Of a stretch of DNA of 35,537 nt, positions 2,894 through 35,537 are shown in pieces (within the stretch, counting starts at the first letter, position 1; each line of letters begins with the position of its first letter). The stretch comes from an uncultured Bacteroidota bacterium (GTDB taxonomy: Bacteria > Bacteroidota > Bacteroidia > UBA4408). The stretch lies in contig CAIMMJ010000042.1 in NCBI GenBank assembly GCA_903842515.1, positions 1 to 35,537 of the forward strand, given 5' to 3'. A model generated the notes under the pieces. That model was given only the letters and a program-made list of their open reading frames with translations. It was not told where the DNA came from and did no database searches. Made by a program: the position numbers and the translations under genes.

Positions 2894-3180
2894 ATATATT
2901 GAACTTGTTTAAGGATTGATTCTTTGATTTGTTCTTTCAATGAATTTCGGGTAACTAGGTCAACACGAATTCCCATATTCTGTTCTAAAAAACGTTCTAA
3001 TGTAAAAAACTCCCAACCAACTGGTTCAGAAAATTCAACTAACAAGTCAAGGTCGCTTTTTTCGTTTTGTTGTCCAGTAGAGTATGAACCAAAATATCCA
3101 ATTGAACTTACATGAAATTTGTCAGTAAGCAATGGTTTAATGGCTTTTAATTTACTCTCTATTTCTAATTTTGTCAACAT
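2890..3180 (-). CDS. mntA: MntA minimal nucleotidyltransferase antitoxin
   Basis: 96 aa carrying the GS-x3-G...SDLDLLV nucleotidyltransferase signature (GSYSTGQQNEKSDLDLLVEF). It is translationally coupled to hepT. Confidence 0.85.
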   Translation of the reverse strand: MLTKLEIESKLKAIKPLLTDKFHVSSIGYFGSYSTGQQNEKSDLDLLVEFSEPVGWEFFTLERFLEQNMGIRVDLVTRNSLKEQIKESILKQVQYI

Positions 3181-3215
3181 GGTCGCAAGTTAATATTTTT
3201 TTTTGAAACCCCAAC

Positions 3216-3232
3216 ACGTATTAGTGCTAACT
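3216..3232. repeat. Right arm of the inverted repeat bracketing the HepT/MntA cassette
   Basis: acgtattagtgctaact, 36 nt upstream of the mntA start. It is internally near-palindromic (TTAG-TG-CTAA). Confidence 0.5.
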
Positions 3233-3388
3233 AAATTATTGGCGAAGAAAGAATAATTTAATTATATACTCACTCTAAAATAAAACAGAAATACCCTGTC
3301 CACAATTCAAAGTTGAAAATATTATTTCTTCTCATAAAATTGTTGCAATAAAAATTACAACTTGCTTTTAAATTATTTATCAAAAGAA

Positions 3389-4696
3389 ATGGCAAAATTT
3401 GAAATTATAGGCGGCAAAAAATTAAAAGGAGAAATTATACCACAAGGTGCAAAAAACGAAGCATTGCAAATATTGTGTGCAGTATTGCTAACTCCCGAAC
3501 CTGTTGTTATTAGTAATGTTCCGGATATTGTTGATGTAAATAAATTAATAGATTTACTAAAAGAGTTGGGCGTAAAAGTTACTAAATCTGGTTTTGAACA
3601 ATATACTTTTATTGCCGATGACGTAAATATTGATTACTTAAATTCTCCCGAATTTAAAAAGAAGGGAGCTGCACTAAGAGGTTCTATAATGATTGTTGGG
3701 CCTTTGTTGGCAAGATTTGGAAGAGGATATATTCCTAAACCGGGTGGCGATAAAATTGGTAGAAGAAGATTAGATACTCATTTTATTGGATTTCAAAATT
3801 TAGGTGCAAAGTTTGAATACATAGAAAACGAAGAGTTTTATAAAGTAGAAGCGTCCAACTTAAAAGGTTGTTATATGCTGTTGGATGAGGCTTCTGTTAC
3901 CGGAACTGCAAACATTGTTATGGCAGCAGTAATGGCAAAAGGAACAACAACAATATACAATGCCGCATGTGAGCCTTATTTGCAGCAACTCTGCAAAATG
4001 CTAAACAGGATGGGTGCAAAAATCAGTGGAATTGGTTCTAATTTATTAACTATTGAGGGCGTTGAATATTTAGGTGGAACAGAACATAGAATGTTGCCCG
4101 ACATGATAGAAATTGGCTCATTTATTGGCTTGGCAGCAATGACACAGTCTGAAATTACCATTAAAAATGTTTCGTACGAAAGCCTTGGAATAATACCAGA
4201 TACGTTTAGAAAATTAGGAATTGAGATGGAACTGAGAGGAGATGATTTATACATTCCTTCGCGAGAAAATTATGAAATAGATACATTTATTGATGGCTCA
4301 ATTCTTACGGTGGCAGATGCTATTTGGCCGGGATTTACACCCGATTTGTTGAGTATAGTTTTAGTAGTTGCTACACAAGCAAAAGGAAGTGTTTTAATTC
4401 ATCAAAAAATGTTTGAAAGCCGTTTGTTTTTTGTGGATAAATTGATTGATATGGGTGCTCAAATAATTTTGTGCGACCCACACAGAGCAACAGTAATAGG
4501 GCTAAACAGGCAACATAGTTTAAGGGGAATAAATATGACGTCTCCAGATATACGTGCCGGAGTTTCATTACTTATTGCAGCACTTAGTGCACAAGGAAAA
4601 AGTGTGATTGACAATATTGAACAAATTGATAGAGGATATCAGAACATTGATAGTAGATTAAAAGCAATTGGTGCTGATATTACCAGAATAAATTAA
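3389..4696 (+). CDS. murA: UDP-N-acetylglucosamine 1-carboxyvinyltransferase MurA
   Basis: The N-terminus MAKFEIIGGKKLKGEIIPQGAKNEALQILCAVLL is typical of MurA. I chose the ATG at 3389 over the upstream TTG at 3362. The active-site loop reads KPGGDKIGRRRLDTH. Confidence 0.95.
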   Translation: MAKFEIIGGKKLKGEIIPQGAKNEALQILCAVLLTPEPVVISNVPDIVDVNKLIDLLKELGVKVTKSGFEQYTFIADDVNIDYLNSPEFKKKGAALRGSIMIVGPLLARFGRGYIPKPGGDKIGRRRLDTHFIGFQNLGAKFEYIENEEFYKVEASNLKGCYMLLDEASVTGTANIVMAAVMAKGTTTIYNAACEPYLQQLCKMLNRMGAKISGIGSNLLTIEGVEYLGGTEHRMLPDMIEIGSFIGLAAMTQSEITIKNVSYESLGIIPDTFRKLGIEMELRGDDLYIPSRENYEIDTFIDGSILTVADAIWPGFTPDLLSIVLVVATQAKGSVLIHQKMFESRLFFVDKLIDMGAQIILCDPHRATVIGLNRQHSLRGINMTSPDIRAGVSLLIAALSAQGKSVIDNIEQIDRGYQNIDSRLKAIGADITRIN

Positions 4697-4754
4697 TTTT
4701 TATAATTTTGGAACAATAATTGTCAAAAGAATACCAACAATATCTAAACAAAAA

Positions 4755-5300
4755 ATGAAAAAAATAAATTTTTTTATAGCCCTAATAGCATTTTCTACAT
4801 TGGTTTGGGGATTCTCGAATAAACTTGCGGGAAGCACTGCAACCGTTGGGCTGAACATAGGAAACAAAGCTCCCGAGATGGTTTACAAAACACCCGATGG
4901 AAAAGACCTGTCGTTGTCATCTGTAAACAAAGGAAAAATTGTATTGATAGATTTTTGGGCATCGTGGTGTGGTCCATGCCGTATGGAGAACCCCGCTGTT
5001 GTTGCCGCTTATGAAAAATACAAAAACACAAAATTTAAAAACGGCGCCAAAGGCTTCACTATTTATAGCGTTTCATTAGACAAAGCAAAAGAAAATTGGG
5101 TAGCAGCAATTGCAAAAGATAAATTATCATGGTCTAACCACGTAAGCGATTTAATGTCGTGGCAAAGTGCAGCAGCTGCCCAATATGGTGTGAATAGCAT
5201 TCCAATGAATTTTTTGTTGGATGCAAAGGGAATTATTGTTGCAAAAAATTTAAGAGGCTCTGCACTTGAAGCAGAAATAGAAAAGTTGGTAAAAAAATAA
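4755..5300 (+). CDS. TlpA/ResA-family thiol:disulfide oxidoreductase (exported thioredoxin-like protein)
   Basis: Signal or anchor peptide followed by a WASWCGPC thioredoxin active site. Confidence 0.85.
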   Translation: MKKINFFIALIAFSTLVWGFSNKLAGSTATVGLNIGNKAPEMVYKTPDGKDLSLSSVNKGKIVLIDFWASWCGPCRMENPAVVAAYEKYKNTKFKNGAKGFTIYSVSLDKAKENWVAAIAKDKLSWSNHVSDLMSWQSAAAAQYGVNSIPMNFLLDAKGIIVAKNLRGSALEAEIEKLVKK

Positions 5301-10630: not shown

Positions 10631-11617
10631 TTGGGGGTGGAATGGAAAACAAACAACTATAATTTTGATGGCTTAGAAGTTTATTTAAATAGAATTCAAG
10701 AAAAAAAGATTCTATTAGATAAGCACAGGCCAATTCCTGCAATAGCGCTAAAAAAAATAAAAGAAAGTTTATCGCTAGAATGGACATATAACTCTAATAG
10801 CATAGAGGGCAATACACTTACACTAAGAGAAACCAAAATGGTTATTGAAGAAGGGTTTACGATAAAAGGTAAATCTCTTAGAGAACACTTTGAAGCAGTG
10901 AATCACCAAGAAGCAATAGAATATGTAGAACAATTAACAAATGAAAAATACCAGCTAAAAAGTAAAGATATTTTAGAAGTCCATTCCTTAGTTTTAAACA
11001 AAATTGAAAAAGATTTCGCAGGCAGATTTAGAACATCAGGAGTTAGAATTTCGGGGGCAAATTTTGTTCCACCAAATGCACTAAAGGTTTCTTTATTAAT
11101 TGACGAATTAATAGAATGGGTAAACAAAGAGTCTAAAAAATTGCATCCAATAATTAGAGCAACTATCTTTCACCACAGGTTTGTGCATATTCACCCATTC
11201 TTTGATGGAAATGGCAGAACAGTAAGGCTAGTTTTTAATTTATTGTTGATGAAAGAAGGTTATCCGCCTGCAATTATTTTAAAAACCGATAGAAAAAAAT
11301 ACTACGATGCATTAAACAAAGCAAACAATGGAGATTACTCAAAATTGCTTTTACTGGTTATTCAGGCAGTAGAAAGAAGCTTAGATATTTACTGTAGTAG
11401 TTTAGATAATACCTACGATAATTATATGCCAATACAAAACATTGTAGAAGAGTTGGATGTTCCGTATGGGCAAGAATACATCAGTCTTTTAGCGAGAACA
11501 GGAAAAATTGATGCTTTTAAAGAAGGAAGAAATTGGCTTACTTCAAAAGAAGCTGTTTTTAATTATATGAACAAACGTCCTAAAAAAAGAAGAAGCAAGT
11601 TTGACGTAATAAAATAA
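10631..11617 (+). CDS. Fic-domain protein (class II, intramolecular inhibitory helix) with a C-terminal HTH-like tail
   Basis: Fic motif HPFFDGNGRTVR. An N-terminal inhibitory (S/T)xxxE(G/N) motif is present as SNSIEG. The start is uncertain (TTG 10631 or GTG 10637; no early ATG). Confidence 0.85.
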   Translation: MGVEWKTNNYNFDGLEVYLNRIQEKKILLDKHRPIPAIALKKIKESLSLEWTYNSNSIEGNTLTLRETKMVIEEGFTIKGKSLREHFEAVNHQEAIEYVEQLTNEKYQLKSKDILEVHSLVLNKIEKDFAGRFRTSGVRISGANFVPPNALKVSLLIDELIEWVNKESKKLHPIIRATIFHHRFVHIHPFFDGNGRTVRLVFNLLLMKEGYPPAIILKTDRKKYYDALNKANNGDYSKLLLLVIQAVERSLDIYCSSLDNTYDNYMPIQNIVEELDVPYGQEYISLLARTGKIDAFKEGRNWLTSKEAVFNYMNKRPKKRRSKFDVIK

Positions 11618-16755: not shown

Positions 16756-17875
16756 ATGAGTATTACAATAGAGCAAATAAAAGCTCTAAGTTCCAGAAAA
16801 GAGGAACTGAGGAGGCATCTTTGACGTAGATTACCAGCTACGTCAAATAGAAGAAGAGGAAGAAAAAACATTGGCACCAGGCTTTTGGGACGACCCTAAG
16901 AAAGCCGAATTGGTGATGAAAGCAATAAGAGAAAAAAAGCAATGGACAGATTCGTTTAAAAACGTTTCTAAAAGTTGTGATGACCTTGAAGTTGTTTTTG
17001 AGTTCTTTATTTCTGGTGATGTAAGTGAAGAGGAATTGCAAGTGCAGTTTTTAACTACAGAAAAAGTTCTAGAAGACCTTGAGTTTAAGAATATGCTCAG
17101 TGGTAAAGAAGATTCATTAAGTGCTATTCTTACCATAAACTCTGGGGCCGGTGGCACCGAAAGTTGCGATTGGGCTTCAATGCTAATGAGAATGTATATG
17201 ATGTGGGCAGAAAAGCATGGATTTAAAATTACTGAAGAAGACTTTCAGGAAGGCGATGTGGCAGGAATAAAATCTGTTACACTGCAAATAGAAGGGCCCT
17301 TTGCCTATGGTTATTTAAAAGGTGAAAGTGGCGTTCATCGTTTGGTAAGAATTTCTCCATTTGATGCAAATGCCAAACGACACACTTCATTTGCATCTGT
17401 TTATGCCTATCCCCTGATAGACGATACTATAAACATAGAGATAAATCCTGCAGACATAGAATGGGATACTTTTAGATCGGGAGGCGCAGGAGGCCAAAAC
17501 GTTAACAAAGTAGAAACGGCAGTAAGGGTAACGCACAAGCCTTCTGGTATTATTATCAAAAACCAAGAATCAAGGTCTCAATTGCAGAACAAAGAAAAAG
17601 CCTTGCAATTGCTAAAATCTCAGTTGTATGAATTGGAGATGAGGAAAAGACAAGAATCTATTGATGCAATTGAAGGTTCAAAAATGAAAATTGAATGGGG
17701 TTCGCAAATAAGAAACTATGTGTTGCATCCCTATAAATTGATAAAAGATGTAAGAACAGGCTACGAAACCTCCAATACACAAGGGGTTTTAGATGGAGAT
17801 TTAGACGAGTTTATCAAATCTTTTTTAATGGAATACGGAAAAGCTAAAGAAAATAAAAAAACAAATTTTATATGA
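16756..17875 (+). CDS. prfB: Peptide chain release factor 2, expressed by programmed +1 frameshift: join(16756..16821,16823..17875)
   Basis: Frame 0 reads [22 protein letters not shown] and then hits TGA at 16822-16824. The +1 frame continues [28 protein letters not shown]... and carries the SPF tripeptide (RISPFDA) and GGQ ([13 protein letters not shown]). The ORF track shows only the downstream frame from 16871. Confidence 0.95.
16809..16847 (+). promoter_or_regulatory. prfB recoding site: internal SD-like GAGGAGG, a 3-nt spacer, CUU UGA C, and an overlapping hairpin
   Basis: GAGGAGG (16809-16815), CAT, then CTT TGA C (16819-16825). The layout matches the E. coli prfB shift site. A perfect 10-bp stem (16820-16829 with 16838-16847) and an 8-nt loop enclose the UGA. 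Confidence 0.85.
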
Positions 17876-27234: not shown

Positions 27235-28392
27235 TTATTGAACTATTATTTTTTTTATCAGCACATTTTTCTGTTCCTCAGTTACTTTTACTACATACAT
27301 TCCTTTGCGGAATTGCTGAACATCTAACATGTTTTGATTTCTTGCTTTATAGATTGTTTGTCCCACGTAATTAATTATTTCAATTTCAAAATTTGTACTA
27401 TTTTTTGAAAAAGTTAGATTAAGAAAATCTGTTGCGGGATTTGGAGAAATAAGGAGTGAGTTGATTTCTTTTGCAGTGGAGCTAGAACTTAAATTACAAT
27501 TAAGAAGGTTTATGTTTTGATGAATATCTAAAAACTGCTTAAGAACTGACACCAATGAATCGGAAAACAATTTGCGGTTAGAATAATTATCACGAACATT
27601 GGCATAGTTGCATTCTATTTGCAGGCCATTAACGGTGTTGCCTACTGAATAACTTGTATGGTTTGCTGTATTGTAACCACCACTGTAATAATTGTCTGTT
27701 GTTTCTGGAAATGGTATTTGTTGGCTGGGAACTGATGGATAACCAGCATTGCCAAACAAAGTTCCTAAGGCAAAATTACCTCTTAATAATTCTGCATGAC
27801 TATATCCATTTGAATTAGTTGCAACTAAATTTTGAATTGAGCTGTAATCAATGTATTGGTTGGTGTTTAATACACTGTCGGCCAAAACCAATTCATTGTC
27901 GTATAATAAGTATCCTAACTCAAGTCTCTGAATTAGGTTCCCGTGACCATGCAGGTCAATATAAAATGCTTTCCCTCCAAATACATTTTGAGCCCTGGCT
28001 TGGGCGGTATCAATAAAATTATTGAATTCGTTCCATGCATTTGCTGCTATTGGATTTCCACAAGCTCCATCGGCAATATTTCTGTTGCAATCTAATTTAG
28101 ACCTGTGTAAATTGCAATAAATAATGTAAGGATGACATCCAGTAGCAGTTACAAAAGCGGTATCAATTTGTTGAGCCAGTTCAATTGTATTTGCATCTGA
28201 AACTAGAACGGCGCTATTGCAAGTGCGGTTGGGAATATCTGAAGGAAGGAGATTACCGCCATGAGGCACTGAAATAATTATTGGCAGATTCCCTGAATGG
28301 TACTCTGTATAGTTATTGACGCCATAAATAATTTGGGAATAACTTTGTAAACAATAAATTAAAGCTAATGCTAAGAATATTATTTTTTGCAC
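27235..28392 (-). CDS. T9SS-secreted protein: N-terminal N-formylglutamate-amidohydrolase-like / zinc-hydrolase-like domain (tentative) plus a Por C-terminal sorting domain
   Basis: Signal peptide (GTG start) MQKIIFLALALIYCLQSYSQ. PIIISVPHGGNLLPSDIP and YIDLHGHG motifs. C-terminal ISPNPATDFLNLTF...GMYVVKV...KKIIVQ is typical of T9SS CTDs. Confidence 0.8.
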   Translation of the reverse strand: MQKIIFLALALIYCLQSYSQIIYGVNNYTEYHSGNLPIIISVPHGGNLLPSDIPNRTCNSAVLVSDANTIELAQQIDTAFVTATGCHPYIIYCNLHRSKLDCNRNIADGACGNPIAANAWNEFNNFIDTAQARAQNVFGGKAFYIDLHGHGNLIQRLELGYLLYDNELVLADSVLNTNQYIDYSSIQNLVATNSNGYSHAELLRGNFALGTLFGNAGYPSVPSQQIPFPETTDNYYSGGYNTANHTSYSVGNTVNGLQIECNYANVRDNYSNRKLFSDSLVSVLKQFLDIHQNINLLNCNLSSSSTAKEINSLLISPNPATDFLNLTFSKNSTNFEIEIINYVGQTIYKARNQNMLDVQQFRKGMYVVKVTEEQKNVLIKKIIVQ

Positions 28393-28421
28393 GAGCTAAA
28401 ATTACTTTTTTTTCTTTGTTT

Positions 28422-28485
28422 TAAATTTGTTTTTGGTTTTTATGACGGAGGCAAAGTGGAATGCAGATTTGCATAGCAGGTATTT
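28422..28485 (+). repeat. Intergenic repeat, partial copy 3
   Basis: TAAATTTG box (28422-28429), then ttatgacggaggcaaagtggaat + ATGCA-gatt-TGCAT + agc. This resembles both the ATG-GGAGG block and the tail (gtggaat...AAGCA-caaa-TGCTT-agc, 27150-27176) of copy 1. Confidence 0.35.
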
Positions 28486-28544
28486 TGAAGTACAAATGTT
28501 TATTAGCCGCGGCTAAAGAATACTAAACTTTATTATACCAAGAT

Positions 28545-28594
28545 TACGCAGTTGAAAAAAGTTTTTAATTTTGGTGTATAAATTCAACTGCGTA
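28545..28594. repeat. Perfect 12-bp inverted repeat with a 26-nt spacer
   Basis: tacgcagttgaa (28545-28556) and ttcaactgcgta (28583-28594). It lies in the intergenic space between the divergent T9SS gene and the GAF-kinase gene. Confidence 0.6.
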
Positions 28595-28660
28595 GCAATA
28601 GAAAAAATTGCGTATGAAATTAGAGCTATCCTTTACCAATAAAGAGATTACAAACACTTT

Positions 28661-28830
28661 CCTTAGTCCGAGGCAAAGATAAATGTGTTAGGGACCAAGG
28701 ACATTTAAATAAAATCTTTATATTTGATTTATGACAGGTGGAGGATATAAAAATAGAAAATGTATGAAGTCTTTAGTCCCTTAGCTTATTAAATGCTTCA
28801 GATGGAGGAAAGAAGGATAAAGTGGATTAC
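28661..28830 (+). repeat. Intergenic repeat, copy 2 (short form), immediately upstream of the GAF-kinase gene
   Basis: See copy 1. TATATTTG box at 28719-28726. The ATG at 28731 is followed by GGTGGAGG. It ends about 55 nt before the 28886 start codon. Confidence 0.6.
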
Positions 28831-28885
28831 TACCTACCATAGACGCTAAATGTTTTATTATTAAAATTTAAAAAAATAAAAAAAT

Positions 28886-30088
28886 ATGCAGAAACCAAGT
28901 TTTCACAAAGAAGAGCTAGAACGTTTAAATAGCTTAAGGTCATATTTAGTTTTAGACAGTGAATCAGATAAAGAAATAGATTGTCTTACAGAACTTGCAT
29001 CTGAAATTTGTGAAACGCCAATTTCATTGGTTAGTTTGGTGGATAGTGACAGGCAGTGGTTTAAATCTAAAGTAGGTCTGCAGGCAAGCGAAACAAGCAG
29101 AGATATAGCATTTTGTGCACACGCAATCGTCCAATCCGAAGAAATGTTTATCATTGAAGATGCCACAAAAGATGAACGTTTTTTTGACAATCCTTTGGTT
29201 GTAAATGCACCATTAGTAATATTCTATGCGGGAGTTGTATTAAAAAGCGATACAAATTATCCATTAGGAACGCTGTGTGTTATTGACAATCAACCGCGAA
29301 AATTAAATGATAAACAAATTAGAGCACTTAAAACCATTGCAAGGCAAATAATGAACTTGCTTAATTACAAAAAAGTGTTGCGTTTGGGGGAGGAATTGAG
29401 ACTTCAATTGGCGCAAAAGAATCAAGAACTAGAAAGTTTTGCATCAATTGCAGCACACGATTTAAAATCTCCGCTCATAAACATTATGAGTGTTGCAAAT
29501 TTATTTTCTAAAACATACGAATTACAATTAGACTCTAAAGGTAGTGTTATGTTAGACTTAATTGAAAAGTCAGCTAAGCGACTTTCTTTAATGATTGATG
29601 GGTTATTGCAGTTTTCAAAAATTGATGGCATGAGTTTATTACTAAAATCTAAAGTAACCTTAAGCGAAACAATAACCGAACTCGCAGCATTGATTGGTAA
29701 CAATAACAATTTAAAAATTTTGCTGTACTCAGATTTAACAACTATTGAAACATATCCTATACTACTTGATCAAATTCTGATGAATTTATTTTCAAATTCA
29801 CTAAAATATAACCACACAAAAATAGCAGAAATTGAACTTTATGTTTCCGAGAATCCCAGCCATTATTTATTTATAGTTAAAGACAATGGCCCAGGAATAG
29901 ATAAGAAATACCAAGGCGCTATTTTTAATTTATTTCAGACCGCTACCAATAAAGATCAATTTGGCAATAAAGGAAATGGCATAGGCTTGGCTCTAGTAAA
30001 GAAAATTATAGAAAAACTTGGAGGCAAAATTTATGTAGAATCTGAATTAGGACATGGAGCTGAGTTTCATTTTTCCATTTCTAAATAG
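28886..30088 (+). CDS. Soluble GAF-domain sensor histidine kinase (GAF-HisKA-HATPase)
   Basis: N-terminal GAF domain (ELASEICETPISLVSLVDSDRQWFKS...FYAGVVL...LGTLCVID), H-box FASIAAHDLKSPL (His191), N box LMNLFSNSLKY, G boxes DNGPGID and GNGIGLALVKKIIE. No TM segments. Confidence 0.9.
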   Translation: MQKPSFHKEELERLNSLRSYLVLDSESDKEIDCLTELASEICETPISLVSLVDSDRQWFKSKVGLQASETSRDIAFCAHAIVQSEEMFIIEDATKDERFFDNPLVVNAPLVIFYAGVVLKSDTNYPLGTLCVIDNQPRKLNDKQIRALKTIARQIMNLLNYKKVLRLGEELRLQLAQKNQELESFASIAAHDLKSPLINIMSVANLFSKTYELQLDSKGSVMLDLIEKSAKRLSLMIDGLLQFSKIDGMSLLLKSKVTLSETITELAALIGNNNNLKILLYSDLTTIETYPILLDQILMNLFSNSLKYNHTKIAEIELYVSENPSHYLFIVKDNGPGIDKKYQGAIFNLFQTATNKDQFGNKGNGIGLALVKKIIEKLGGKIYVESELGHGAEFHFSISK

Positions 30089-30452
30089 TTGAACCTCAAA
30101 TTCTCGTAAGCCTAATAAAATTAATCGATTTGAATGAAAATATAGGATTTAAACCTACCGTTTTCTTTTGTATAATATTAAAAACATGGCATTTATTCGG
30201 AGCGAAAAACGGCCTCATGAATACCTTAATGAATAAATTAAATGATGAATAAAAAGTAAGGCAGGTTTGGGCAGCTTCCCAATATAAAAATTCTATAAAT
30301 GACTTTTTGAGGTTGTACTAATAGAATAAAAGTGAGTACTCAAATAATTTTATTCAATTGAACTAAAACAAAATTTACAATACGGCAAGCAAAGAAAGAG
30401 ATGGGTGGCACATTGCATAAAAAGAAATTAAACTTATGTTTTACCTTTCTGT

Positions 30453-30481
30453 TTTGATAAAATTTGTTTTTTGTATGTTTG
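30453..30481 (+). promoter_or_regulatory. Candidate promoter for the H-NOX operon (TTTG ... TAnnTTTG)
   Basis: TATGTTTG at 30474-30481, 20 nt upstream of the ATG. TTTG at 30453-30456 gives a 17-nt spacer, which is shorter than the 19-21 nt consensus I recall. This is a motif match only. Confidence 0.25.
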
Positions 30482-30501
30482 TGTTATAAAAAACAAAATA
30501 T

Positions 30502-31047
30502 ATGTACGGTTTAGTAAATAAAGCAATTCAAGATTTAGTGTGCGAAAAGTTTGGAGAAGATAAATGGCTTGAAATAAAAAAAATGTCAAATTTTGAAGAC
30601 GATTTTTTTATAGGTCTGCAATCCTACCCGGATTCATTGACCTATGAATTGGTTAAAAATTCATCAAAAGTTTTAGGGGCAGAGTCCTCTGTAATAATGG
30701 AAGCTTTTGGAGAATATTGGATTTTATTTACCGCTAAAGAAGGTTATGGCGAAATGTTAGATTTGGCAGGAGATAGCTTAGCAGAATTTTTAAATAATTT
30801 AGATATGCTTCACAACAGGGTAAACAACATTATGCCCGAGTTAGTAGCGCCTCAATTTTCAACCCGAAATGAAACTACCAATTCAATAGAGTTGGAGTAC
30901 AGATCAAAACGACAAGGAATGGCCCCAATGGTGGTAGGGCTTTTGAGAGGTTTGGGCATAAGATTTAATAAAGAAAATATGAAAATTGAACATATTCAAC
31001 AAAAAAACGACGTAAATGATTGTGATGTTTTTAAAATTGAGTGGTAA
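30502..31047 (+). CDS. hnoX: Stand-alone H-NOX (haem nitric oxide/oxygen-binding, HNOB) sensor protein, sGC/Nostoc type
   Basis: MYGLVNKAIQDLV N-terminus, proximal His104 in LDMLHNRV, Y-x-S-x-R triad as YRSKR (133-137), and a C-terminal IEHIQQKNDVNDCDVFKIEW resembling the end of the sGC beta1 H-NOX domain. Confidence 0.9.
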   Translation: MYGLVNKAIQDLVCEKFGEDKWLEIKKMSNFEDDFFIGLQSYPDSLTYELVKNSSKVLGAESSVIMEAFGEYWILFTAKEGYGEMLDLAGDSLAEFLNNLDMLHNRVNNIMPELVAPQFSTRNETTNSIELEYRSKRQGMAPMVVGLLRGLGIRFNKENMKIEHIQQKNDVNDCDVFKIEW

Positions 31048-31053
31048 AGTTTA

Positions 31054-33432
31054 ATGGAAAAACCTACTACCCCAATTAATGAGCAAAACAGGTTAGGTGC
31101 ACTAAATTCTTATGAAATATTAGATACACTAGAAGAAAAAGAGTACAATGATATTATTGCTCTTGCAAGTCAAATTTGTGGAACCAACATTTCAATTATC
31201 AGCTTTATTGATGAATACAGACAATGGTTTAAAGCAAGTCTTGGATTAAAGCTAAAACAAACTCCTCGCGAGATTTCTTTTTGCGGACATGCCATTAATA
31301 CCCCTAACGAAATTTTTGTTGTTTCTGACGCCAGGATTGATAAAAGATTTTCTGATAATCCTTTAGTAACAGGAGAACCACATATTGTTTTTTATGCCGG
31401 TGTACCGCTAGTTGATGACAATGGATTTGCATTAGGAACCATTTGCGTTTTAGATTCGGCCCCTAAAGAGCTCAACAAAAATCAAATAAATGCATTAAAA
31501 ATATTGAGCGAACAAGTAATACAGTTACTAAGCATTAAAAAAAAGAGTTTAGATTTAATTAAAGAAAAATTGCTTTTTCTTGATTCAATTAATTTTGCTT
31601 GTCCTTTTTTTCTGATAATTGATATTAATGAATTCATTATTGAATATGGAGATAATTATAAAATAACCTTTCCTGAAATTAAAAAAGGAACATTGTTTAG
31701 TGATTATTTTATTTTTGAATCAGGAATAAATATTACTACACTTTTAACCTCTTATACAAACGAAAATAAATTATTGTTTTACAAAAGTATAGATGGAACG
31801 CAAAGGTATAAGTGTTCTATAAAAAGATATAATGATGCTTTGTTGGTTCTTTCCGTTCCGGTTATAAATTCAATTTATTTGATTTCTAACTATAGACTAA
31901 AAATAAATAATTTCCCTAAACATGATTACATAGCTGAATTTTTATTTCTGCAGCAAGCTGCTGCAAAAGGATTGCAAGATTCAAAAATACTAAATGCTAA
32001 TTTAACTGAAAAAAATAAACTTCTAGAATTATCTAAAAAAGCATTAATCAACGCAAACGGCCGCCTAGAAGAACAGGTTAATGAACGCACAAAAAAAATT
32101 AAAAACTTAGCATTATTTCCTGAGCAAAATCCTAATCCTGTATTTGAATTAGATTATGAAAATAAAGAAATAAATTATTCAAATCCTGCAAGTAAATTAC
32201 TTTTTTATAAAGGCAGTGATTTTACTTTTGAAGAACTAATAAAAGTTTTATGTATTACAGAAGAAGCAGTTGTATCTAAAAAATCTCAAAAATTTGAAAT
32301 TGAAATTGAATCGGAAATTTATGAGCGGTACATCTTTTTTATTGGTAACTCAACTATTATAAGAGTTTACCTGCACAACATTACAGAAAATAAAAAGTAT
32401 CAAAATGAATTAAAAGAAAAAAATTTAAAGTTAGAAGACACATTAAATCAAGTTGTGAATCTTCAAGAAGATATAATAAAAAAAGAAAAAATGGCAACGC
32501 TAGGTTTGTTAATTTCAGGAATAGCTCACGAAATTAATACTCCATTAGGCGCAATAAAAGCTTCTAGCGATAACCTAATTTATTTAATAAAAAACGAGCT
32601 AATTAATAAAATTGCAGAATTAGATATTAACGATATCTTAGATAGCTTGGAATTATTTTTTTTACAAAAAAAAACAAATACAACTTTTAACAATTCAAGA
32701 GAAGAAAGAGCAGCTTCAAAAAAAATAGAACTAGAACTTAAAACTCAGTATAAAAACATTTCAAATACATTTTTTTACTCGAGAAAAATTCATGAATTAG
32801 GCTTTGAAAGTTTAGATCCTAGCCTTGAAAAGTTTTTAACGCACAAAAACAGTTTACAAGTTTTTACATTTGCAGTAAATCTGTTAACAATTATAAAGTC
32901 GGCCGATACAATTTCAATTGCAATAAATAAGGCTTCAAAAGTTGTATCGTCACTAAATAATTTTTCTCATGGAAATATTAATAAAGAAATTTCTGCATTT
33001 AATCTTAAAGGCAGTATAGATTCTGTTTTAACTCTCCTTTGGAATAAAATAAAGCAAGGTGCAGAAGTTATTAATAATGTTTCGGATGAAATTTATATCA
33101 CCACTAATCAAGAAGAATTGTCACAGGTATGGACAAATATAATTAACAATGCTTTGCAAGCCTCCAACAATAGCTGCAAAATAGAAATAAGTTATTTATT
33201 AGAGCAAGATTACCATATTATTACTATTAAAAACAATGGTCCTGAAATTCCTAAAGATATTATTGGCAATATTTTTGACGAGTTTTTTACCACAAAAAAG
33301 CGAGGCGAAGGAACGGGGCTTGGTTTAAATATTGTGAAAAAAATTATTGAAAAAAACAAAGGACTTATTGAGTGTTTCAGTAATTCATTAGAAACAAAAT
33401 TTGTTATTTCTTTACCCATAAAAAATGAATGA
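31054..33432 (+). CDS. Soluble multidomain sensor histidine kinase: GAF - HNOBA - coiled coil - PAS-like - HisKA - HATPase
   Basis: GAF domain (aa about 10-160), paralogous to the one in the 28886 kinase. HNOBA-like blocks CPFFLIIDINEFIIEYGDNYKITFPEIKKG and LSVPVINSIYLISNYRLKINNFPKHDYIAEFLFLQQ. PAS-like FPEQNPNPVFELDYENKEINYSNPAS. H-box GIAHEINTPLGAI (His492, codon 32527-32529). N box WTNIINNALQA. G boxes NNGPEIP and GEGTGLGLNIVKKIIE. Confidence 0.9.
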   Translation: MEKPTTPINEQNRLGALNSYEILDTLEEKEYNDIIALASQICGTNISIISFIDEYRQWFKASLGLKLKQTPREISFCGHAINTPNEIFVVSDARIDKRFSDNPLVTGEPHIVFYAGVPLVDDNGFALGTICVLDSAPKELNKNQINALKILSEQVIQLLSIKKKSLDLIKEKLLFLDSINFACPFFLIIDINEFIIEYGDNYKITFPEIKKGTLFSDYFIFESGINITTLLTSYTNENKLLFYKSIDGTQRYKCSIKRYNDALLVLSVPVINSIYLISNYRLKINNFPKHDYIAEFLFLQQAAAKGLQDSKILNANLTEKNKLLELSKKALINANGRLEEQVNERTKKIKNLALFPEQNPNPVFELDYENKEINYSNPASKLLFYKGSDFTFEELIKVLCITEEAVVSKKSQKFEIEIESEIYERYIFFIGNSTIIRVYLHNITENKKYQNELKEKNLKLEDTLNQVVNLQEDIIKKEKMATLGLLISGIAHEINTPLGAIKASSDNLIYLIKNELINKIAELDINDILDSLELFFLQKKTNTTFNNSREERAASKKIELELKTQYKNISNTFFYSRKIHELGFESLDPSLEKFLTHKNSLQVFTFAVNLLTIIKSADTISIAINKASKVVSSLNNFSHGNINKEISAFNLKGSIDSVLTLLWNKIKQGAEVINNVSDEIYITTNQEELSQVWTNIINNALQASNNSCKIEISYLLEQDYHIITIKNNGPEIPKDIIGNIFDEFFTTKKRGEGTGLGLNIVKKIIEKNKGLIECFSNSLETKFVISLPIKNE

Positions 33433-33823
33433 ATTAGCGATAATATCAGTAGATGATGAAAAAATAATTCTTGATTCTCTTAAAAGTCAATTTGAAATAA
33501 ATTTTCAAAATAAATTTCTTTTTGAATTTGCCGAAAGTGCAGAAGAGGCATTAGAGTTAATTGATGAATTAATTGAGGATGGTATTAAAATAATCTTAGT
33601 AATTTCTGATTATCAAATGCCAGGCATGAAAGGCGATGAGTTTGCATTAATTCTTCGCCGTAAGCTACCATCTACAAAAGTAATATTGCTTACAGGGCAA
33701 ATAAGCCAAGATGTAGCAATAGATTTCGTTAATAATAATATTTTTGTAAACATTGTGTCAAAACCTTGGTCTGAAAACGAATTAGTAACCCTTGTAAAAA
33801 ATATTGCCAACAATGTCGGCTAA
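33425..33823 (+). CDS. Single-domain response regulator (REC only) 1
   Basis: VDDE acidic pocket, phospho-acceptor Asp in LVISDYQMPGMKG, LLTGQ (Thr), SKPW (Lys). Its start overlaps the kinase stop by 8 nt (ATGAATGA). Confidence 0.85.
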   Translation: MNELAIISVDDEKIILDSLKSQFEINFQNKFLFEFAESAEEALELIDELIEDGIKIILVISDYQMPGMKGDEFALILRRKLPSTKVILLTGQISQDVAIDFVNNNIFVNIVSKPWSENELVTLVKNIANNVG

Positions 33824-34214
33824 AAAAGCTATATTAATAGTTGATGATGAATTTATTATCCTTGAGTCACTAAAAATTCAGTTAGAACGAATTATTGATA
33901 AAGAAATTATTTTAGAAGTAGCTTATTCAGGTGAAGAAGCTAATGCTATTATTGATGAGTTATACAGTAATGAAATAAATCTTTTACTCGTTATTTCTGA
34001 CTATAATTTAGATGATTGCAAAGGAACGGATGTACTTAGTTATTGTAATCAAAAATTTTCTGGTTCAAAAAAGATTATCCTATCTGGCCAATTAGATAAT
34101 GAAAATATAACTCATTTTAAAGAAACAATTGGATTGCATGACCTTTTTTTTAAGCCTTGGGGGTTTGACGAACTAAGAAAATCGATTGGTAAAATACCTG
34201 AATTATTTAATTAA
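33813..34214 (+). CDS. Single-domain response regulator (REC only) 2
   Basis: IVDDE, LLVISDYNLDDCKG, ILSGQ, FKPW. I prefer the ATG at 33813 (MSAKKAILIVDDE) over the TTG at 33804. It overlaps REC 1 by 11 nt. Confidence 0.8.
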   Translation: MSAKKAILIVDDEFIILESLKIQLERIIDKEIILEVAYSGEEANAIIDELYSNEINLLLVISDYNLDDCKGTDVLSYCNQKFSGSKKIILSGQLDNENITHFKETIGLHDLFFKPWGFDELRKSIGKIPELFN

Positions 34215-34256
34215 CAACCAAAAGAAACTACAAAACAATAAATTTTTATTGGCCAT

Positions 34257-35375
34257 TTATTGAAAACACAAGGATGGTTTTAAGGCAAGAAAGATCATAT
34301 CGTCTGTTTGATTTGTTTTTCCTTGCCATTTTCTAAGAAAAATATTTAACTGAACTTGTATTGATGTAAGGTCGTTATTCAAATATTCTGAATCTAAAAA
34401 TGATATCAACCGTTTTCTTGAAAGTTTTTTATCCAAAAAACCTCCAAATTGATCAGTAATGCCATCTGAATAAAAGTAAAAAACATCATCTTTATTGAAA
34501 TTTATTTTAATCAAAGAGCTATTTGATTCTTCATCACCTTTTAATCGAAGTTTAAGAAGTTTATTTTTATTGTTTAAAGAATCATAATATATGAATTCTC
34601 TTTTTGAGCCTACTATTTCAATTTCTGAGCTCCCTTTTTTTAGTTTAAAAATAGCTATATCAATAGAATCGTGTACTTCGTGCTCAGCAAAAATAGGACT
34701 CAACATTGATTTTAGTTCAATATAAAGTTGGTTAATAATTACTTTCAAATCAGTGTGTGTAGAGGTAACATTTTTTAATATGTTGTAGCAAATTATAGAA
34801 AGTAGTGCCCCAGGAACACCATGTCCTGTGCAATCGCCAACGGCAACAATTATTTCTTCATTTGCATTTCCTCCACCAATAAAACAAAAATCTCCAGAAA
34901 CAATATCTTTTGGTCTGTTTATATAAATATATTCTTTGAAAATGCTTTTGATTTCGTTTTCTTTTGCAAATAATTGTTTTTGTATTCTTTGTGCGTAAAC
35001 CAAAGAATCTGTAAGACTAACTATACTTTCAATAACATTTTCTAATTCTTCAGAAGAGAGAGGTTTGGATAAATACCCATTCATGTTTGTAGATAAAGCT
35101 CTATTGTAAACATTATCGTTGGTATTTGCAGACACATATATTATTGGAATATTAAGCGTTTCTTGAATTTTTTTGGCCGTTTCAATCCCGTCTATCTCTC
35201 CTTCCAATCTTATATCCATCAAAATTAAATCTGCATGGTTATCTTTAAAAAATTCTACCGCATCTATACCATTTTCAAAACAAGCAACTACATCATGGCC
35301 TAAATTTGTAACGTAATGCATGTGCAACTCTTGAAGTATTAACTCATCTTCTATTATAACTACTTTTTTTGTCAT
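34257..35375 (-). CDS. Response regulator fused to a PP2C/SpoIIE-family serine phosphatase (RsbU-like output)
   Basis: REC domain (IIEDE, LILMDIRLEGEIDG, SKPL), then PP2C motifs SGDFCFIGG, VAVGDCTGHGVPGALLS, FYFYSDGITDQFGG and QTDDMIFLAL. Confidence 0.9.
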   Translation of the reverse strand: MTKKVVIIEDELILQELHMHYVTNLGHDVVACFENGIDAVEFFKDNHADLILMDIRLEGEIDGIETAKKIQETLNIPIIYVSANTNDNVYNRALSTNMNGYLSKPLSSEELENVIESIVSLTDSLVYAQRIQKQLFAKENEIKSIFKEYIYINRPKDIVSGDFCFIGGGNANEEIIVAVGDCTGHGVPGALLSIICYNILKNVTSTHTDLKVIINQLYIELKSMLSPIFAEHEVHDSIDIAIFKLKKGSSEIEIVGSKREFIYYDSLNNKNKLLKLRLKGDEESNSSLIKINFNKDDVFYFYSDGITDQFGGFLDKKLSRKRLISFLDSEYLNNDLTSIQVQLNIFLRKWQGKTNQTDDMIFLALKPSLCFQ

Positions 35376-35459
35376 GTTCCTTAGAGCTTTTAATTGTACT
35401 TCTACTCTTTTATTTTTTTAGTTGATTTTTAGGTAATCGCATATATTCATTTCTGCCTT

Positions 35460-35537
35460 TTACAAATTTGTAAATGTAATCTGCAAAGTTAGTCCGGGTT
35501 TTTTTATATACTCAATAGACCCTTTAATTTGCCTAAC
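35460..35537 (-). CDS. 3' end of an upstream minus-strand ORF running off the window (possibly a kinase C-terminus; very tentative)
   Basis: The minus frame reads ...VRQIKGSIEYIKKPGLTLQITFTNL* with TAA at 35460-35462, 84 nt upstream of the REC-PP2C gene. Only 25 codons are visible. The G-x-I...G-x-T-x-x-I-x-F ending is loosely HATPase-like. Confidence 0.25.
   Translation of the reverse strand, partial: VRQIKGSIEYIKKPGLTLQITFTNL

Follow-up and report, generated by a model that had tools for sequence, protein, structure and literature searches.

A 35,537-nucleotide (nt) stretch of DNA from an uncultured Bacteroidota bacterium (contig CAIMMJ010000042.1 of assembly GCA_903842515.1, lineage UBA4408; this whole stretch is referred to here as the window) carries a gene for a sensor histidine kinase next to hnox, which encodes a stand-alone H-NOX protein, a haem sensor of nitric oxide (NO). 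We have found that window positions 31561-32106, inside the kinase gene, encode a divergent, genuine HNOBA domain, with a PAS core and a long signalling helix as in soluble guanylate cyclase (sGC). This confirms the central claim of an earlier note on the same DNA, prepared without database searches, that an HNOBA domain is embedded in a bacterial histidine kinase; profile comparison and structural modelling both bear it out. The explanation that we favour for the locus as a whole, and to which we would give a probability of about 0.65, is that the HNOBA domain is genuine and that the separately encoded H-NOX protein acts on the kinase in trans through it.

Identification of the HNOBA domain by profile comparison

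The earlier note placed the domain at 31576-32088. HNOBA sequence does occupy this interval, although the true limits are slightly wider, as given above. The proposal was built on two blocks of the kinase (block 1, amino acids (aa) 183-212, nt 31600-31689; block 2, aa 268-301, nt 31855-31956), aligned with quoted sGC beta1 strings, and on a heptad-like helix peptide (aa 313-350, nt 31990-32103). All three kinase peptides are present in the 792-aa open reading frame (ORF), the quoted strings are correct when compared with Protein Data Bank (PDB) chain 6jt0_B, and hmmalign reproduces the gapless register of both blocks together with the coincident positions listed for them. The end of block 2 had been paired one residue out: the QQ of the kinase lies opposite G-E of sGC and not opposite E-Q.

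Identity to sGC beta1 within the blocks is approximately 7/30 and 6/32, which alone is not above chance. When the sequences are aligned to the family hidden Markov model (HMM) with hmmalign, identity to sGC beta1 in the two halves of the domain is 11/68 and 19/82, and identity to the Nostoc domain in register is 17/110 (approximately 15%). A phmmer comparison of the segment with all PDB sequences returned no sGC chain and no chain of the Nostoc punctiforme kinase NpSTHK at E<=10, and a 4-sequence subfamily profile found no match in the PDB. Pairwise or shallow similarity cannot therefore establish the HNOBA assignment on its own. Its significance comes from profile methods, which were decisive; pairwise similarity to sGC is not significant.

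With the isolated segment (aa 175-345) as query, the Pfam HNOBA family PF07701 gives 24.4 bits (E 2.3e-5), just over its gathering cut-off of 23.4 bits, in a match that spans profile positions 126-195 of 216 only. No other PAS family in Pfam matches the isolated segment at E<=10. The Pfam comparison proposed in the earlier note thus yields an HNOBA match and no better-scoring PAS family. NCBIfam returned no family for either the HNOBA segment or H-NOX.

A word-indexed homologue search returned only three close fragments, annotated solely as GAF proteins, and an exhaustive HMMER search was needed. For this, a subfamily profile (A2) made from the window segment and the three close fragments, 190 positions in length, was run against 1.84 billion representative proteins. 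It retrieved 343 matches at E<=1e-3, of which 65 reached E<=1e-10, and every match extended over essentially the whole profile. The best 149 of these 343 were scanned with Pfam: of the 69 closest, 42 carried PF07701, as did 75 of the 80 that were more distant, with a best E of 7.7e-36. Most of the best 149 are HisKA/HATPase_c kinases and a few have GGDEF, SpoIIE, EAL or STAS outputs; a GAF domain occurs in 25/69 of the closest. The consensus of the more distant set is the classical FPFH...G...LKGQ...P...DFAxHD...LFLLQ, and the canonical signature residues kept in the window kinase are PF, G199, P269, F287, H290-D291 and LFLQQ.

Comparison of the 4-sequence subfamily with 75 canonical bacterial HNOBA segments using hhalign gave a probability of 99.9% and an E of 9.8e-35 over 182 columns, including the N-terminal half that is missed by Pfam. 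A profile of 69 sequences (A5), compared with all PDB sequences, gave eight matches only, all to NpSTHK or sGC: the NpSTHK PAS domain (2P04/2P08, E 7.5e-25), sGC beta1 (1.2e-20) and alpha1 (3.8e-15), from both human and Manduca, and the Manduca alpha PAS domain. Among solved structures, a profile seeded from the segment therefore recognises only sGC alpha and beta chains and the Nostoc HNOBA kinase.

Structural models of the domain

Two models were obtained with AlphaFold2, one of aa 161-369 using the A5 alignment and one of the full-length kinase (mean predicted local distance difference test score (pLDDT) 82.9). The segment model, with a pLDDT of 93.2, shows a cap helix (segment residues 2-22), a five-stranded PAS core and a continuous helix of approximately 60 residues. 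All 21 Foldseek matches in the PDB at E<=1e-3 are sGC or NpSTHK chains (E 5e-6 for sGC). Generic PAS domains, those of phytochromes, begin at E 1.3e-3, approximately 100-fold behind. The model superposes on 2P04/2P08 with a TM-score of 0.76 and a root-mean-square deviation of 2.1 A over approximately 100 residues, as expected from the earlier proposal of an sGC-type PAS/HNOBA fold. It should be noted that the model agrees with the sequence evidence but is not independent of it because the A5 alignment itself contains canonical HNOBA sequences.

The long helix that the earlier note had likened to the sGC signalling helix is also borne out. It runs without interruption from the PAS core and carries an ERT signature at aa 344-346 (nt 32083-32091). 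In Anantharaman, Balaji and Aravind 2006 (PMC1592074), the signalling helix (S-helix) is described as a helix of approximately 40 residues located between signalling modules and bearing a central ERT signature. The helix of the window kinase, which falls in the range of approximately 40-60 residues and lies between the HNOBA PAS core and a second PAS domain, is typical of this class.

Pairing of the kinase gene with hnox

The closest solved relative of the window H-NOX is the Nostoc Alr2278 H-NOX (E 1e-51), followed by sGC beta1 (3e-28), while the E to Shewanella H-NOX is 1e-7 only. Judged by these matches, it is a protein of the Nostoc/sGC-like type. Both the haem-ligating His and the YxSxR motif are found. 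His104, Pro117, Tyr133 and Arg137 do not vary among 26 orthologues, and S135 hardly varies. The kinase ORF starts 6 nt after the hnox stop codon. In our explanation of the locus the two genes are co-transcribed and probably translationally coupled.

To place this arrangement in a wider context, related loci were collected with the 4-sequence alignment as query, using one genome per species. The scan gave 59 loci, 58 of which carry Bacteroidota titles (Bacteroidia, Crocinitomicaceae, Flavobacteriales and Cryomorphaceae) and one of which is titled as an uncultured Akkermansia sp. metagenome-assembled genome. The closest, JBAXQC010000005 (L001), is 88% identical to the window over the HNOBA segment. 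A tblastn search with the window H-NOX identified a full-length H-NOX gene directly upstream of the kinase gene and on the same strand in 54/59 loci. The remaining five have their match at the 5' edge of the contig, which leaves 54 testable loci, all of them with the gene (54/54). The hnox stop codon and the kinase start are separated by 13 nt or less, or overlap, in 50/53 pairs. The same holds at greater distance: a PF07700 gene lies directly upstream in 5/5 distant HNOBA kinases sampled from the HMMER match list. In 13 of the loci (L046-L058) the kinase has no GAF and HNOBA is N-terminal, and the H-NOX gene is still found upstream. The five distant kinases also have no N-terminal GAF, because all of them start with HNOBA.

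Co-variation of H-NOX with HNOBA

We took the last 310 aa of the kinase as its core and correlated the matrices of pairwise distances for H-NOX, GAF, HNOBA and this core over the 34 complete GAF-containing loci and within two subclades (Table 1).

Table 1. Correlation (r) between pairwise distance matrices of H-NOX and of the kinase domains
Comparison	All 34 loci	Subclade A	Subclade B
H-NOX, HNOBA	0.91	0.83	0.89
H-NOX, GAF	0.65	0.73	0.77
H-NOX, core	0.76	0.46	0.62
H-NOX, HNOBA given GAF (partial)	0.85	0.57	0.69
H-NOX, HNOBA given core (partial)	0.79	0.79	0.81
H-NOX, GAF given HNOBA (partial)	-0.08	0.15	0.12
H-NOX, core given HNOBA (partial)	0.22	0.25	-0.04

The observed value of both H-NOX/HNOBA partial correlations was reached in 0/2000 permutations. 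For H-NOX and GAF given HNOBA, the partial correlations are not significant. For the core given HNOBA, the observed value was reached in 5/2000 permutations over all loci and in 89/2000 in subclade A; the core thus adds little once HNOBA is accounted for, and in one subclade its contribution is not significant. Along the DNA, GAF is encoded between hnox and HNOBA, so that neither physical linkage nor recombination can account for this ranking. Over L001-L058 the mean pairwise p-distance is 0.32 for H-NOX, 0.44 for GAF and 0.58 for HNOBA. H-NOX is thus much more conserved than its presumed partner domain, yet the distances of the two are tightly correlated. This domain-specific co-variation is suggestive; it supports, without proving, docking of H-NOX on HNOBA.

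A proposed model for signalling in trans and its alternatives

Partnering of H-NOX with the kinase through HNOBA is supported by the gene adjacency described above (54/54 and 5/5), by the fact that relatives without GAF keep H-NOX, by the Nostoc/sGC-like type of the window H-NOX and by the domain-specific co-variation of Table 1. HNOBA may accordingly be viewed as a candidate docking and transduction site for the separate H-NOX protein, although 'obvious', the word used in the earlier note, was too strong.

The model that we propose is as follows. H-NOX would bind the PAS/helix module of HNOBA in the dimeric kinase in trans, in place of the cis contact between H-NOX and PAS in sGC. Binding of NO to the haem ligated by His104 would alter this contact, and the change would be relayed through the S-helix, the second PAS domain and the coiled coil to the DHp domain, where autophosphorylation at His492 would change. 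In all characterised cases NO-bound H-NOX inhibits kinase autophosphorylation (PMC4436077), and the analogy with these H-NOX/kinase pairs leads us to expect that NO-bound H-NOX would inhibit this kinase as well. Phosphotransfer would then change to two stand-alone receiver proteins (REC1 and REC2) encoded downstream and probably to a nearby REC-PP2C phosphatase. The GAF domain, in cis, would supply a second, independent input.

A number of points weigh against this model. Our literature search found no binding or activity data for any HNOBA-containing bacterial kinase. To our knowledge, the kinases regulated by the Shewanella and Vibrio H-NOX proteins have no HNOBA domain, so that H-NOX can act on other kinase surfaces. 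Phylogeny confounds mirror-tree correlations such as those in Table 1, as do domain-to-domain differences in rate and saturation, and the subclades may have kinase cores that are not strict orthologues. With the whole kinase as query, PF07701 scores 17.4 bits (E 0.0033, aa 260-333), below its gathering cut-off. Several canonical motifs are altered in the window kinase (for example, FPFH is replaced by CPFF, LKGQ by YKCS (in QRYKCS) and DFAxHD by NFPKHD), and the near-invariant Asp that precedes the Phe of DFxxHD is Asn286.

The first alternative is that the HNOBA domain is a true one that serves in dimerisation and transmission only, while H-NOX docks on the DHp/CA core of the kinase, as has been proposed for kinases that are regulated by H-NOX and lack HNOBA. 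We consider this unlikely. Dimerisation through PAS domains is documented for NpSTHK and sGC (PMC2828450); among the references of PMC8738867 there are interface studies of the Shewanella and Vibrio H-NOX/kinase pairs, carried out with hydrogen-deuterium exchange mass spectrometry (HDX-MS); and dimeric transmission modules typically have a cap helix and a long S-helix. There would, however, be no need for a generic dimerisation module to lie next to an H-NOX gene every time, as HNOBA does in both the related and the distant loci, and the partial correlation between H-NOX and the core given HNOBA is weak compared with that between H-NOX and HNOBA given the core (Table 1).

A second alternative, that H-NOX docks on the N-terminal GAF, which occupies the position of H-NOX in sGC, and that HNOBA merely relays the signal, appears very improbable. 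The GAF does precede HNOBA directly, through a continuous helix, and is found in most close relatives. Nevertheless, HNOBA is the first domain of the 13 GAF-less kinases, whose genes are still preceded by an H-NOX gene, an H-NOX gene is likewise found upstream of all five distant HNOBA kinases, none of which has an N-terminal GAF, H-NOX and GAF show no significant partial correlation given HNOBA, and a paralogous GAF of approximately 50% identity is present in a neighbouring kinase that is independent of H-NOX.

Finally, the proposal of an ordinary ligand-binding PAS domain, resembling HNOBA through a shared fold and adjacent to H-NOX by chance, would fit the PDB searches with pairwise and shallow-profile methods, from which sGC was absent, and the marginal, partial Pfam match, but is effectively refuted by the hhalign alignment over the whole domain, by PDB profile matches and a Foldseek lead exclusive to sGC and NpSTHK, by the lack of any other PAS family of Pfam on the segment and by the 54/54 pairing.

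Organisation of the kinase and of the locus

The features of the kinase and of its neighbours are collected in Table 2.

Table 2. Features of the H-NOX/kinase locus (window coordinates)
Feature	Position	Strand	Evidence or remark
Second, simpler GAF-HisKA-HATPase_c kinase	28886-30088	+	414 nt upstream of hnox
hnox, H-NOX (HNOB), 181 aa, stand-alone haem NO sensor	30502-31047	+	PF07700, E 1.5e-48, full length
Sensor histidine kinase, 792 aa, GAF-HNOBA (PAS + S-helix)-PAS-DHp-CA	31054-33432	+	ORF, Pfam, full-length model
N-terminal GAF, aa 10-141	31081-31476	+	PF01590, E 2.9e-11 (Pfam match aa 32-156); alpha/beta fold in model
Helix from GAF to HNOBA PAS core, aa 142-182	31477-31599	+	Full-length and segment models
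HNOBA domain overall, aa ~170-351	31561-32106	+	Profile match from aa 170; PAS core, then ERT-type signalling helix
HNOBA PAS core, aa 183-292	31600-31929	+	Profile alignments; five-stranded PAS model, pLDDT >90; Foldseek
Signalling helix, aa 293-351, continuous with PAS core	31930-32106	+	Models (helix 132-194 of segment model)
Second PAS-like domain, aa 355-443, opening with FPEQNPNPV motif	32116-32382	+	PAS-type strand/helix pattern 363-442 in model
Coiled coil and DHp, aa 444-638	32383-32967	+	HisKA at aa 484-508 only; helices 444-522, 525-595, 600-638
Catalytic ATP-binding domain (CA), aa 647-792 (model 647-788)	32992-33429	+	PF02518, E 4e-19 (Pfam HATPase_c match aa 685-790)
REC1, stand-alone receiver, 132 aa	33425-33823	+	PF00072, E 1.1e-15
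REC2, stand-alone receiver, 136 aa	33804-34214	+	PF00072, E 4.7e-12
REC-PP2C (SpoIIE-type) phosphatase response regulator, convergent with operon	34257-35375	-	PF00072, E 9e-22; PF07228, E 6e-12

The C-terminal part of the helix that joins the GAF to the PAS core forms the N-terminal cap helix of HNOBA. The second PAS-like domain of the window kinase has no Pfam match; PAS_4 is found in 23/69 and PAS_9 in 18/69 of the closest homologues. The phospho-acceptor His492 (nt 32527-32529), located on helix 444-522, is nearly invariant. A helical insert of approximately 70 aa, made of several short helices (aa 525-595, window 32626-32838), appears to separate the His492 helix from DHp helix 2. Its place in the hairpin of the DHp four-helix bundle explains why the Pfam HisKA match is so limited. 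In the CA domain N695 is nearly invariant, N699 is invariant and G755/G757 are conserved. With the H-box His and the N and G boxes present, the protein is a complete, cytoplasmic, multi-sensor kinase. An exact look-up of its sequence returned no record, and the names of sequence clusters were uninformative.

The REC1 ORF overlaps the kinase stop codon, and two receiver genes follow the kinase gene in most related loci. A REC-PP2C gene lies within 6 kb, on either side, in 15 related loci, including 13/21 of the closest. The REC-PP2C protein is a probable further output of the H-NOX/kinase system, and its recurrence hints at an output by partner switching and not through a transcription factor.

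The simpler kinase upstream of hnox has a GAF domain that is roughly 50% identical to that of the HNOBA kinase and can for this reason be considered a paralogous sensor. It is kept at the same position only in the closest related locus, L001. In that locus (2927-4969, corresponding to window 30088-30502) two extra genes on the minus strand, for proteins of 323 aa and 184 aa, lie between the GAF kinase and hnox, where the window has the 414-nt spacer only. The 323-aa product contains a DDYGNxxYGxxG-type motif, reminiscent of polymorphic-toxin domains, and the difference between the two loci may represent a toxin/immunity-like indel.

Scanning of 28300-35537 for sigma-70 promoters gave fewer promoter-like sites than in shuffled sequences and was uninformative, and a scan of the same region for intrinsic terminators gave results at chance level. 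The sequence TATGTTTG occurs at 30474-30481, 21 nt 5' of the hnox ATG, although a motif this short may be present by chance in AT-rich DNA. It agrees at every position with TAnnTTTG, the consensus of the -7 promoter element in Bacteroidota.

The rest of the window, whose GC content is approximately 31%, is chromosomal and of a housekeeping nature (TatC, EPSP synthase, MetRS, RF2, EF-Ts, S2 and a protein sorted by the type IX secretion system (T9SS)). The RF2 gene (prfB) has a classical programmed +1 frameshift at 16819-16825: a short frame-0 ORF (16756-16824) stops at CTT TGA C, and the PCRF/RF-1 ORF (16823-17875) continues in the +1 frame from GAC. CTTTGAC occurs only once in the window. A Fic/DOC-domain protein is encoded at 10631-11617 (+), and a secreted protein with a T9SS C-terminal sorting domain at 27235-28392 (-); the latter is in keeping with a Bacteroidota origin of this DNA.

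Significance

If the fuller statement on this clade with which we close is correct, the operon would offer a naturally split model, suited to expression in bacteria, of the way in which H-NOX talks to an sGC-type PAS/signalling-helix module, and would provide the first direct test of the 2003 prediction, described below, that HNOBA is an H-NOX adaptor. The pair is convenient for studies of docking and of the signalling helix because the two partners are separate proteins with a domain-specific co-evolution signal. The site at which H-NOX docks and the way in which the signal enters the signalling helix are relevant to sGC pharmacology. The results also show that uncultured freshwater Bacteroidota widely possess sGC-type NO-signalling modules, made up of a Nostoc/sGC-like H-NOX and an HNOBA kinase. 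Standard Pfam annotation misses HNOBA in this clade, whose closest relatives in the databases are annotated for GAF only.

Comparison with known systems

Iyer, Anantharaman and Aravind are said to have defined HNOBA in 2003 as the domain of sGC that separates H-NOX from the cyclase. They reportedly also described it in bacterial signalling proteins with neighbouring H-NOX genes and predicted that it would act as an H-NOX adaptor. PMC1592074 (its reference 30) and PMC549065 credit the 2003 work for the HNOBA/H-NOX gene neighbourhood, and according to PMC2828450 the crystallised HNOBA/PAS domain from a histidine kinase of Nostoc served as a model of sGC dimerisation (2P04/2P08; Ma et al. 2008 JBC). 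In view of the 2003 description and of the Nostoc structure, an HNOBA kinase beside an H-NOX gene is a known arrangement. The novelty implied by the earlier note does not hold: such kinases had already been described, and the 2P04 structure dates from 2007.

The Nostoc punctiforme kinase Npun02000820 (2P04/2P08), in which an HNOBA PAS domain likewise forms part of a bacterial histidine kinase, is the best match of the window kinase by both profile and structure. It differs in having HNOBA at the N-terminus, as do most matches of its kind, whereas the window kinase has a GAF before it and a further PAS after it. The two share approximately 15% identity, FPFH and LKGQ are replaced in the window, and the hosts are cyanobacteria in one case and Bacteroidota in the other.

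With animal sGC alpha1/beta1 (6JT0/6JT2, 6PAS, 4GJ4) the window kinase shares a homologous PAS core, a long signalling helix and a functional link to an H-NOX haem sensor. In sGC, however, PAS is preceded by an H-NOX domain fused in cis, and a class III cyclase provides the output. In the window H-NOX is encoded as a polypeptide of its own, the N-terminal position belongs to a GAF and a histidine kinase provides the output; in addition, the ERT signature is present in the helix, which continues into a further PAS domain.

The H-NOX/HnoK systems (Shewanella oneidensis, Vibrio spp., Silicibacter sp. TrichCH4B) resemble the window locus in having a stand-alone H-NOX beside a histidine kinase and multiple response regulators. 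We know of no HNOBA domain in their HnoK-type kinases. Unlike the window H-NOX, which is close to the Nostoc protein (1e-51), the H-NOX proteins of these systems are distant from it (E approximately 1e-7), and their outputs are c-di-GMP enzymes or quorum-sensing circuits instead of two bare receivers and a REC-PP2C protein.

This is, then, not a new kind of system but a divergent member of the known H-NOX/HNOBA pairing. What is new is a divergent Bacteroidota clade of HNOBA domains, marginal to Pfam and usually preceded by a GAF, that shows a domain-specific signal of co-evolution with H-NOX. A fuller statement, to which we would give an even chance, is that this unannotated GAF-HNOBA clade achieves the sGC-like contact between H-NOX and PAS in trans, between tightly co-evolving polypeptides, with the GAF in cis occupying the place of H-NOX and adding a second input.

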